A DNA stretch of 54,820 nt from a virus (taxonomy: Duplodnaviria; Heunggongvirae; Uroviricota; Caudoviricetes). The stretch is taken from IMG/VR virus record IMGVR_UViG_2879731240_000008. The stretch is one strand, 5' to 3'. This document shows positions 31,401 to 35,146 of the stretch, one piece after another. Numbering within the stretch: position 1 is the first letter of the stretch; each line of letters starts with the position of its first letter. Made by a program: the position numbers.

Positions 31401-34400
31401 CACAGCACGGGTAAGGCGCATCACGTCGGTGATCTCCACACTGGCCAGATAGTTACGGATGATGTGTTTTGCCATAGCCACAGCCAGATGATTTTTTCCG
31501 GTACCACAACTGCCGGTCATAACAAGACTGGTACCGTTCTCCAGCATATCTGGCCAGTTCTCCGCATAGCGGCGACAGGCCGCAAGATTTCTGGCTGCGC
31601 CAGGATTAACCTCCAGATAATTATCAAACTCGCAGTCCCGAAAACGCAGGGCAATTCCGGCGTTATCAGTCAGCTCTTCCGCCTTGATGGACGACAGCTC
31701 CATGGTCAAATCGTTGGCCTCAGCGATTAAGCAGTCAGGGCAGCATGAAATTTCTTCTCTGTCCTCGCCATTACGATCGCTCCACACCAGTATATGCGTG
31801 TGATATTCGCCATGTTTTTCGCAATATCCGCGACCTTCACGCATCAGGCAGGAACGATAAGGCCATGGCTTTTCGCCCTTCTGAGCAAATGCAATCTCTG
31901 CCCGTAACTCATCCATTCGCGCCTGTAGTCTTTTTTGTTGTTCACGCAGGTTAAACGTCATCATCGCTGTCACCTCAGAATGTCTGAAGTGGCACACTGA
32001 ATTTGGCCACCTGAACAGAGGTGATATGCTCACCTCAGAACAACACAGGTGCTCCAATGAAAAAAAGAAATTTTAGCGCAGAGTTTAAACGCGAATCCGC
32101 TCAACTGGTTGTTGACCAGAAATACACGGTGGCAGATGCCGCCAAAGCTATGGATGTTGGCCTTTCCACAATGACAAGATGGGTCAAACAACTGCGTGAT
32201 GAGCGTCAGGGCAAAACACCAAAAGCCTCCCCCATTACCCCGGAACAAATTGAAATCCGTGAGCTCAGGAAAAAGCTACAACGCATTGAAATGGAGAATG
32301 AAATATTAAAAAGGCTACCGCGCTCTTGATGTCAGACTCCCTGAACAGTTCTCGATAATCGGGAAACTCAGAGCGCATTATCCTGTGGTCACACTCTGCC
32401 ATGTGTTCGGGGTTCATCGCAGCAGCTACAGATACTGGAAAAACCGTCCTGAAAAACCAGACGGCAGACGGGCTGTATTACGCAGTCAGGTACTTGAGCT
32501 ACATGGCATCAGCCACGGTTCGGCCGGAGCAAGAAGCATCGCCACAATGGCAACCCGGAGAGGCTACCAGATGGGACGCTGGCTTGCTGGCAGGCTCATG
32601 AAAGAGCTGGGGCTGGTCAGCTGTCAGCAGCCGACTCACCGGTATAAACGTGGTGGTCATGAACATGTTGCTATCCCTAACTACCTTGAAAGGCAGTTCG
32701 CCGTGACCGAGCCAAATCAGGTGTGGTGCGGTGATGTGACCTATAGTGTGCCCGGAGTTCAGGGCGGGCATGGATGCTTAAATGAACCGCGAGTCTGTCT
32801 GGAATATTGAACGGTAACTCACGATGAGAAACCCAACAATCCCACCGGGTGTGACGGTGGAGAACCTGAGCGGCAGTGACCTGCGGCATGCCCGCAGGGT
32901 GATGTAACCCGCTGACAACGGGGATTGAGGCGAGATCACTAAGCCGAGATGATCCTCAAGGTTAAGTACTGAAAGGCTGAAGAACATGAACCCGTTAATC
33001 CGCCTCTGTGGGTTGAAAACGTCACCACGGCCTACGTGATCTGACAGGCCGTGCAGGAGGAACTGGCAGTGATACGTAAGCACTGCCGGTCGAAGGTGTT
33101 TTGACATGTATGCGAAACACCGGGGCAGCGTCTATCACACTTGCGTTGCTGACTTCTGCCAACTTGCGGCAAGCAAGGATAAAGAGTGCGACGGGCAGCC
33201 TCCTCAGTATGCTGAGTCCAGGCAGGTAAACGGGGAAGGTCAGCGACGGATGTTAAGGGGGCATGGCTCCGATGACGCGCTGGCTGGCGGAGCTTCCGTA
33301 GTAGTCCGCGATGGGGAAAGCCCATTACATGGCGAAGGGAAGCAGTTTGAATGTGTTTGCGACGTGAATTAACTGACTAACGAGGTGAAGACCTTTGATA
33401 ATCAGCGAAATGCAACGCAAGCTTGCCACATGGGCAGCCACCGATCCGTCCCTACGGATTCACGGCTGCTGCGTCTGATAACACAACCAGAATGGCTGGC
33501 TGAAGCGGCGCGGATCACGCTTTCATCAAAGGGGGCCCATACCCCCGGCGTTGATGGCGTGAACAAAACAATGCTACAGGCCAGACTGGCTGTTGAGCTG
33601 CAAATCCTCAGGGATGAATTACTCTCAGGCCACTACCAGCCCTTGCCCGCCAGACGGGTTTACATCCCTAAAAGCAACGGCAAACTGCGACCACTGGGTA
33701 TCCCGCGTTGCGGGATCGTATTGTTCAGCGGGCCATGCTGATGGCGATGGAGCCGATATGGGAGAGTGATTTTCATACGCTCTCATATGGCTTCCGGCCT
33801 GAGCGCAGTGTCCACCACGCGATCCGCACGGTGAAATTACAGCTCACAGACTGTGGTGAAACCCGGGGACGCTGGGTGATTGAAGGCGACCTGTCCAGTT
33901 ACTTCGACACCGTACATCATCGACTGCTGATGAAGGCTGTACGCCGCAGGATCAGTGACGCACGTTTCATGACTCTGCTGTGGAAAACCATCAAGGCGGG
34001 ACATATCGATGTCGGTCTCTTTCGGGCGGCCAGTGAAGGTGTGCCACAGGGCGGTGTTATATCGCCGCTATTATCGAACATCATGCTGAATGAGTTCGAT
34101 CAATACCTGCATGAGCGCTACCTGAGCGGGAAAGCCAGAAAAGATCGGTGGTACTGGAATAACAGTATCCAACGGGGCCGAAGTACGGCGGTCAGAGAAA
34201 ACTGGCAGTGGAAACCCGCGGTGGCGTACTGCCGCTATGCCGATGATTTTGTCCTCATCGTCAAAGGCACCAAAGCACAGGCGGAAGCCATCAGGGAGGA
34301 GTGTCGGGGTGTGCTCGAAGGCAGTCTGAAACTCAGGCTGAACATGGATAAGACTAAAATCACCCATGTTAATGACGGCTTTATCTTTCTGGGGCACAGG

Positions 34401-35146
34401 ATCATTCGCAAACGCAGTCGTTATGGCGAGATGCGAGTGGTCTCAACGATCCCGCAGGAGAAAGCCAGAAACTTCGCCGCATCGCTGACAGCACTGTTAT
34501 CAGGCAACTACAGTGAAAGCAAAGTCGATATGGCTGAACAACTCAACCGAAAACTGAAAGGCTGGGCCATGTTCTATCAGTTCGTTGATTTTAAGGCCAA
34601 AGTCTTCAGTTATATCGACCGTGTCGTGTTCTGGAAGCTGGCTCACTGGCTGGCCCGCAAATACCGTACAGGTATCGCTTCCCTGATGAGGTGGTGGTGT
34701 AAATCACCGAAACCGGGTCAGAGCAAAACGTGGGTTTTATTTGGTAAAACCAATCACGGCAAGCTCAGCGGCGAAATACTGTACCGGTTGGTGGGCAAGG
34801 CAAGAAGCTGTTCCGCTGGCGGCTACCCGAAGGTAATCCCTATCTGAGGACGGAGACCAGAAACACGTATACATCGCGCTTTACAGAAGTGGCAATGGCG
34901 TTCGCCAGCATTTAAATGGAGAGCCGGATGCGCTGAAAGGTGCACGTCCGGTTCGGGGAGGAGAGGCAGGGAAATAGTCCGACTACGCCCTGCCTCTTAC
35001 TCTACTCTGGACGGGTAAGCGCTGGGCGTACCTCGCCGTTGTTCTCGACCTGTTCGCAAGAAAACAGTGGGCTGGGCCATGTCGTTCTCGCCGGACAGCA
35101 GGCTCACCATGAAAGCGCTGGAAATGGCATGGGAAACCCGTGGTAA

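Follow-up and report, generated by a model that had tools for sequence, protein, structure and literature searches.

The catalogued group II intron E.c.I4 in IS911 orfB of a Shigella flexneri prophage, with a frameshifted reverse transcriptase that is probably a sequence artefact

We examined a 54,820-nucleotide stretch of DNA assigned to a virus of the Caudoviricetes (IMG/VR record IMGVR_UViG_2879731240_000008; hereafter the window, meaning the whole stretch). At 32746..35005, on the plus strand, it carries a group II intron of 2260 nt inserted in orfB of IS911. By its sequence this is the catalogued mobile intron E.c.I4 (IntA), an element already known, of open reading frame (ORF) class A, whose intact copies are 2270 nt long (2270-2271 length class). 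Three frameshifts in its reverse transcriptase (RT) ORF, seven other missing intron bases, eleven bases missing from the 3' exon and an RT fragment in a neighboring IS911 copy are most likely errors of consensus or assembly. Taken together, the identification as E.c.I4, its IS911 target and the reading of the defects as consensus or assembly artefacts appear to us highly probable.

Results

More than 2300 complete E. coli genomes match the window intron at 99.6% identity, differing from it by gaps only. E.c.I4 is present in 2347 of 5426 complete E. coli genomes, where it is annotated ltrA (WP_001189111.1, 502 aa), and copies also occur on Shigella virulence plasmids and on plasmids of Klebsiella, Salmonella and Enterobacter. 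Leclercq & Cordaux (2012, PMC3522654), who cite Han 2004 for IntA, gave as its targets specific positions in the IS3-like transposases of IS629, IS911, ISEc16 and ISEc31, and the supplement to the same paper lists E.c.I4-tr1 as a 1764-bp fragment in prophage CP4-6 (NC_000913 271415-273178). E.c.I4 and S.f.I1 have been assigned to ORF class A, a class without a D/En region (Toro & Martinez-Abarca 2013, PMC3552965). Under the naming rule of the database, introns more than 95% identical share one name. The canonical copy is 99.7% identical to E.c.I4-tr1 of MG1655, and the window copy is the canonical one minus 10 gapped bases; the name therefore applies to the window intron, because the K-12 fragment matches at 99.7%. 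In NC_000913.3, the intron sequence that breaks IS911A at the same junction consists of exactly nt 1-1764 (99.7% identity), and this fragment carries ykfC. An annotated small RNA, EyeA (b4690; NC_000913.3 272580-272654), falls in domain I of the truncated K-12 intron, at intron nt 390-464, and the equivalent stretch exists in the window intron.

The ends of the window intron, GTGTG at 32746-32750 and ...CTAC finishing at 35005, follow the conserved GUGYG / AY rule, and GTGTG/AY-type ends recur in 60+ relatives. Rfam family RF00029 (Intron_gpII) matches 34919..35005 with 64.9 bits (gathering score 40; E 1.5e-10); no domain I-IV family from Rfam matched at E <= 1 across the intron, domains V-VI being the sole match. 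Domain V (34921..34954) is a 34-nt hairpin with an AGC triad and a GAAA loop, in which a Brucella relative shows a compensatory change from G-C to U-A. Domain VI spans 34957..35003 according to the Rfam alignment and inspection of the sequence, and we infer the branch point to be its bulged A at 34999, which lies 7 nt from the 3' end. In subclass, the ribozyme is IIB-like.

The host element, IS911 copy A, is divided by the intron into a 5' part at 31985..32745 (left end, orfA and the 5' part of orfB), which forms the 5' exon and ends ...GGTGATGTGACCTATA, and a 3' part at 35006..35481 (3' exon, rest of orfB and right end); both parts are on the plus strand. Joining the flanks gives GTGACCTATA/TCTGGACGGG, which is uninterrupted in an inverted second copy, B (3' part, 36251..36814, minus strand; matched by 36678-36737 and 36738-36814, both 100%), with the homing site at 36737/36738. 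The same sequence is contiguous again at 37458-37594 in copy C, which covers IS911 nt 839 to 1 in clean sequence at 37438..38279 on the minus strand and has its uninterrupted homing site at 37517/37518. An earlier note on this DNA had claimed a group II intron at 32746..35005 in IS911 orfB, a domain V hairpin at 34921..34954 and the restoration, on removal of the intron, of the uninterrupted orfB of another IS911 copy. The ends, the Rfam match (with exactly those hairpin coordinates) and the empty sites in copies B and C bear out all of this.

The host can be read as IS911, of the IS3 family, from its orfA helix-turn-helix, the DDE integrase core of orfB, its terminal inverted repeats and its A6G slippery site. 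HTH_Tnp_1 was matched on the ORF at 32021..32329, and HTH_21 and rve were matched as well. The ends of the element are TGAAGTGG...CCACTTCA, and the 173-aa ORF of copy B has the very sequence of ORF2 from the IS911 of S. flexneri 301. Copy A is short of one A in the A6G slippery run of the programmed frameshift, at about 32307. Owing to this lost A, its OrfA has 102 aa (...ILKRLPRS), vs. 112 aa in copy C. The insertion point lies at the codons of the D-(I/V/F)-T-Y motif conserved in IS3-family transposases. A scan of species-representative genomes with the E.c.I4 RT-maturase returned 360 relatives, in hosts from the gamma-, alpha- and deltaproteobacteria, Nitrospirales, Phycisphaerae and others. 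About 65 of these loci were inspected with their 5' flank, and all but one (L086) lie after ...W..(G)D-(I/V/F)-T-Y codons of an IS3-family transposase.

Over 30106-36372, the window has exactly the sequence of CP020086.1, the chromosome of S. flexneri 1a strain 0670, where the host IS911 lies in a lambdoid prophage. Positions in CP020086.1 equal window positions plus 3,652,619, so that window 32746-37437 corresponds to about 3,685,365-3,690,056. Strain 0670 is from China (strain table, PMC9455713). Orthologous loci in other assemblies were found via the neighboring phage helicase and then aligned to the window. In S. flexneri FDAARGOS_690 (CP055138.1), this prophage position is also occupied by IS911::E.c.I4, whose 502-aa ORF is intact there, and the orthologous chromosomal IS911 is precisely empty in three other S. 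flexneri chromosomes. The insertion is thus polymorphic among S. flexneri, and the occurrence of one chromosomal IS911 in both a filled and an empty state points indirectly, at the level of sequence, to recent retrohoming of E.c.I4.

The RT-maturase ORF (ltrA-type) occupies domain IV at 33410..34915 (plus strand). It encodes 502 aa when intact and is in four pieces in the window. YADD codons are present at 34236..34247, and Pfam recognizes RVT_1 (1.4e-29) and GIIM (5.4e-11) on the window ORF at 33708..34847. On the canonical 502-aa protein, Pfam shows RVT_1 (86-332) and GIIM (356-421) only, at E <= 0.1, with no recognizable D/En region, and the protein scores 341 bits on TIGR04416, the NCBIfam group II RT/maturase model (cut-off 300). 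The intron protein is predicted to be a class A RT-maturase without a DNA endonuclease domain, the class being taken from PMC3552965. Single-nucleotide deletions after 33461, 33701 and 34792 produce three frameshifts in the window ORF, and putting back the three bases yields the canonical 502-aa protein exactly.

Compared with the canonical 2270 bp, the window intron is short of 10 bases, in 8 events, without a single substitution. Each of the 8 is a contraction of a base run or of a short repeat (CC to C, GCAGCA to GCA, CCCC to CCC, GGGG to GGG, AA to A). Five of them, totaling 7 bases, are in the ribozyme, after 32811, 33124 (3 nt), 33211, 33230 and 33376; three are at positions that are unpaired or variable, one makes a variable helix at the periphery shorter and one costs the basal helix of domain I its top G-C pair. 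The 3' exon (35006-35481) is similarly without 11 bases in 7 events relative to copy B, again with no substitutions. Relative to FDAARGOS_690 it also differs by deletions only, the base missing after 35381 being C there and T in copy B. Over the 6.5 kb of window 29000-35481, the comparison with FDAARGOS_690 gave no mismatches and 16 gap events, every one a deletion in the window. Eighteen ORF products arising from the deletions or from the noisy stretch described below were looked up exactly in public assemblies, and 17 had no match. The other, an 88-aa ORF made by the ribozyme deletions, was found on one public contig only, CP020086.1, the source of the window. Both look-up controls were found, namely an IS911-intron read-through of 141 aa, which is widespread, and IS911 ORF2 in its canonical 173-aa form.

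These results refine the remaining claims of the earlier note. An RT with a YADD box is indeed encoded, and the ORF is interrupted where the note had placed a frameshift, around 33700..33715. However, this frameshift, caused by the deletion after 33701, is one of three, and it is probably a sequence artefact. The ribozyme hallmarks that the note had called intact are so at the ends and in domain V, but not in the 7 further bases missing from the ribozyme. Its suggestion that RT is supplied in trans is plausible but moot. The virulence plasmid of strain 0670 (CP020087.1) carries intact copies of E.c.I4, which could supply the protein in trans if the frameshifts are real.

The fold of the ribozyme was derived with RNAalifold from the aligned 5' halves of 49 sequences, those of 48 distinct relatives and that of the window. 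Over the 166 pairs counted, 95.8% of cells form standard pairs, vs. 36-42% when partners are slid by 1-3 columns, and both-side changes occur in 110 of the 166, a value that 0 of 500 shuffles reached; the contrast with these controls is somewhat inflated, the structure having been tested on its own source alignment. Single-sequence minimum free energy folds of the 5' 670 nt, canonical vs. window, were globally different and uninformative, and the comparative structure was used instead. It places domain I at 32751..33234, with a basal helix of CCCGG (32751-32755) and (C)CGGG (33230-33234), domain II at 33235..33288 (helices 22-25), domain III at 33292..33343 (helices 26-27) and the start of domain IV at 33364, all on the plus strand. 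Within domain I, GAUCAC (32934..32939) and GUGAUC (33036-33041) form a long-range loop-loop pairing of the alpha-alpha' or beta-beta' type, perhaps a beta-beta'-like tertiary contact, in which 99.7% of cells pair and 5 of the 6 pairs vary on both sides.

Two hairpin loops of domain I, which share the motif NGUANG, are candidates for exon-binding site 1 (EBS1). Loop A, CGUAAG at 33075..33080, pairs at all six positions with the IS629-type exon CUUACG and at 4 of 6 with the IS911 exon CCUAUA. Loop B, UGUAUG at 33107..33112, pairs at 5 of 6 with the IS911 exon, and exon position -2 pairs with it in all 48 sequences. Covariation with the 5' exon, over its last 6 nt, is seen for both loops (shuffle p ~0.007 for loop A and ~0.0004 for loop B), neither decisively. 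A third stretch, UGUGGGU (intron nt 263-269), is an apparent complement of ACCUAUA in the IS911 exon and was rejected as EBS1; its GGG lies in covarying helix 16, and it does not covary with the exons (p 0.29). For EBS2, UGAUGU (32899-32904) was tried and rejected. It pairs with exon positions -12 to -7 in 89% of cells but without compensatory changes, giving C-A mismatches wherever the column varies, and it sits in the IC1 internal loop. No EBS2 was found.

Downstream of copy A, outside the intron, lies a 760-bp prophage scrap (35485..36247; tRNA-Ile2 region and a fragment of a DUF1133 gene) with 82-91% identity to its relatives: 91% over 35542-35814 and 82% over 35805-36247. The differences are mostly small indels, from which we read 35485..36247 as probable low-quality sequence. 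A copy of tRNA-Ile2(CAU) at 35578-35653 within it carries 8 extra nt next to its 3' end when compared with the intact copy. Relative to FDAARGOS_690, the window also lacks, at 35482-35541, about 4.2 kb between IS911::intron and the tRNA scrap, including a Toprim-domain gene and an insertion sequence, through either a real deletion or a misassembly. The scrap is followed by clean IS911 3' sequence (36248-36814, minus strand), then by a 211-nt piece of the intron (36805..37014, minus strand; intron nt 1948 to 1738, from the maturase X domain, with 3 gaps) that replaces IS911 nt 643-685, and then by IS911 nt 642 to 245 (37013..37437, minus strand; aligned part to 37412), where identity is 80% and 22 gaps open over 426 nt. 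In this last stretch, perfect blocks alternate with scrambled ones, which is the pattern of uncorrected reads. Both 35485-36247 and 37013-37437 resemble such reads in their 80-91% identity and in having more gaps than mismatches. The ORF at 36777..36959 (minus strand), which the earlier note had described as a separate RT fragment, does match GIIM (5.8e-11). It is no evidence for the intron-related rearrangement that the note saw in it, since the fragment sits in a stretch 80% identical to IS911 with 22 gap openings, and related genomes have a plain IS911 at this place.

Elsewhere in the window, an IpaH-type effector gene (LRR_TTSS plus NEL E3 ligase domain) at 1060-2823 adjoins prophage tail-fibre genes, as Shigella chromosomes typically show. 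Positions 49040-50674 encode a Mu-type transposase with DDE_2 and Mu DNA-binding domains, and 51057-51566 encode a DNA-binding protein that resembles the Mu repressor. Directly upstream of the transposase is an IS600-like copy (47778-49042) with 5 substitutions relative to the copy at 24864-26128.

Discussion

The frameshifted RT of the window intron is probably a sequence artefact, because the deletions occur only in runs or repeats, with no substitutions, and because the ORF is intact at the orthologous FDAARGOS_690 locus. The defects sit in a 6.3-kb repeat cluster that was poorly resolved by assembly, and deletion density rises towards 35.5-36.2 kb, where identity drops to 91% and then 82% with gaps prevailing. 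In contrast, the 12 kb outside the cluster on its left side contains one indel and five substitutions, the latter all within an IS600-like copy. General low quality of the assembly was considered and rejected as an explanation, because this flanking prophage DNA has just one indel, the contraction at 31150 discussed below, and that one is reproduced elsewhere. If the deletions were instead real, the window would hold a pseudo-intron in decay, its RT frameshifted at three places and its domain I slightly damaged; it would splice or move only with protein from intact copies or else be dead, leaving IS911 permanently inactivated. We consider this unlikely. In its favor, the deletions are present in the deposited sequence, PMC3522654 reports E.c.I4 copies with disrupted ORFs from S. 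flexneri 2457T and E. coli SMS-3-5, the intact copies on CP020087.1 make protein in trans possible, and the RNA could fold even so, as 4 of the 5 ribozyme deletions affect unpaired or variable regions. However, 16 deletion events between 32307 and 35481, with 0 substitutions and 0 insertions against an otherwise identical orthologous locus, do not resemble the decay of a pseudogene. Moreover, their density increases towards a plainly noisy stretch, and the resulting ORF variants are absent from every other public assembly searched.

Several observations nonetheless weigh against the artefact explanation, which is drawn from the pattern of the differences. A contraction of C5 to C4 at 31150, in unique prophage DNA close to the intron, recurs in 8 contigs from other read sets (SRR315557xx-8xx) and is probably real; therefore, not every deletion in the window is an error, a point that is the chief caution here and also speaks for real deletions in the intron. 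Two pieces of the repeat cluster, 31985-32745 (one indel) and 36248-36814 (none), are clean, and a simple account in which repeats were not polished fails to cover errors spread so unevenly. The pairing of EBS1 with intron-binding site 1 is likewise split between two candidate loops, with the IS911 exon pairing at only 4 or 5 of 6 positions. As a separate observation, the contraction at 31150 is a frameshift near the 3' end of a prophage DnaC-like replication gene (298 aa in place of 292 aa).

The 211-nt intron piece in the inverted IS911 is probably an assembly artefact. Its alternative origin, through abortive retrohoming with template switching, or microhomology recombination between intron and IS911, followed by partial duplication of IS911, seems to us less probable still than real deletions in the intron. 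The piece is oriented like its host IS911, the homing site is only 77-120 nt away, and there are short similarities at its flanks, GTATCGCTTCCCT in the intron vs. GTT-GCTATCCCT in IS911 and TC/GCCGC at the other junction. On the other hand, it is an internal fragment, off the homing site and missing both intron ends, and as such it is not a product of target-primed reverse transcription; one of its flanks is the IS911 stretch with 22 gap openings. In three related S. flexneri genomes, one plain IS911 takes the place of 36251-38279, the stretch that holds copies B and C. The composite of IS911 and RT fragment had no match in the 5426 E. coli genomes or in 72,556 plasmids, and a 35-mer across the junction had none in GTDB species-representative genomes. 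That the deposited sequence is wholly correct, with both a copy of E.c.I4 altered by run contractions only and an IS911 with an internal, microhomology-joined intron piece 77-120 nt upstream of the homing site, appears to us the least likely of these alternatives, with only a slight chance of being right. If it were true, the 211-nt piece would be a footprint of aberrant retrohoming, or of RT template switching, by an endonuclease-less class A intron. The 'frameshifted RT' and the 'intron fragment in second IS911' of CP020086.1 call for caution and are best not taken for decay or rearrangement without read-level support.

The biological importance of the window intron is small. E.c.I4 in IS3-family transposase genes has long been catalogued (1990s-2000s), it is found in more than 40% of complete E. 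coli genomes, and the IS911 of K-12 is among its hosts. The class A family appears to be of wider extent, with hundreds of members across phyla, and far larger than in the 2013 report, which gave its membership as 'three almost identical members'.

From established group II intron biology, we infer how E.c.I4 might splice and move. The intron would be transcribed as part of the IS911 transposase transcript, and the protein encoded in domain IV would bind the intron RNA and aid its folding. Domain V would then catalyze splicing via the bulged A of domain VI, restoring the orfB message; the ligated IS911 exons would read ...GACCTATA/TCTGGACG. The excised lariat-protein particle would reverse-splice into empty IS3-family sites and, without an endonuclease domain, cDNA synthesis would be expected to be primed from nascent DNA at replication forks. 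By this route E.c.I4 would have retrohomed into its normal target, here IS911 orfB of a lambdoid prophage.

The closest known systems are E.c.I4 (IntA) itself and S.f.I1, as named in the Zimmerly database (Dai & Zimmerly 2002; Han 2004; Leclercq & Cordaux 2012), with which the window copy shares sequence, length class, the 502-aa RT-maturase and an IS3-family homing site. It differs from them in lacking 10 bases, probably through sequence errors, and no biological difference is demonstrable. E.c.I4-tr1/ykfC, in CP4-6 of E. coli K-12 MG1655, has the same IS911 junction, GGTGATGTGACCTATA/GTGTGCCCGG, as the window. However, the K-12 copy stops at IS5A after nt 1764, without the maturase end and domains V-VI, whereas in the window the intron extends over its full length. 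In Sinorhizobium meliloti, RmInt1 (class D, IIB3), an intron that likewise lacks an endonuclease, has the insertion sequence ISRm2011-2 as its homing target and uses DNA at the replication fork as primer. Its similar working mode suggests it as a model for the mobility step that we propose for E.c.I4, although RmInt1 belongs to class D rather than A, has another C-terminal region, targets another IS family and is not close by sequence. With Ll.LtrB of Lactococcus lactis (IIA, mitochondrial-like class), E.c.I4 would have in common the general mechanism of maturase-assisted splicing and retrohoming by reverse splicing, and it is by analogy with Ll.LtrB that the NCBI name 'ltrA' was given to the E.c.I4 protein. 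However, the LtrA protein of Ll.LtrB includes D and En domains and cuts the bottom strand, and the ribozyme subclass of Ll.LtrB differs from that of E.c.I4.

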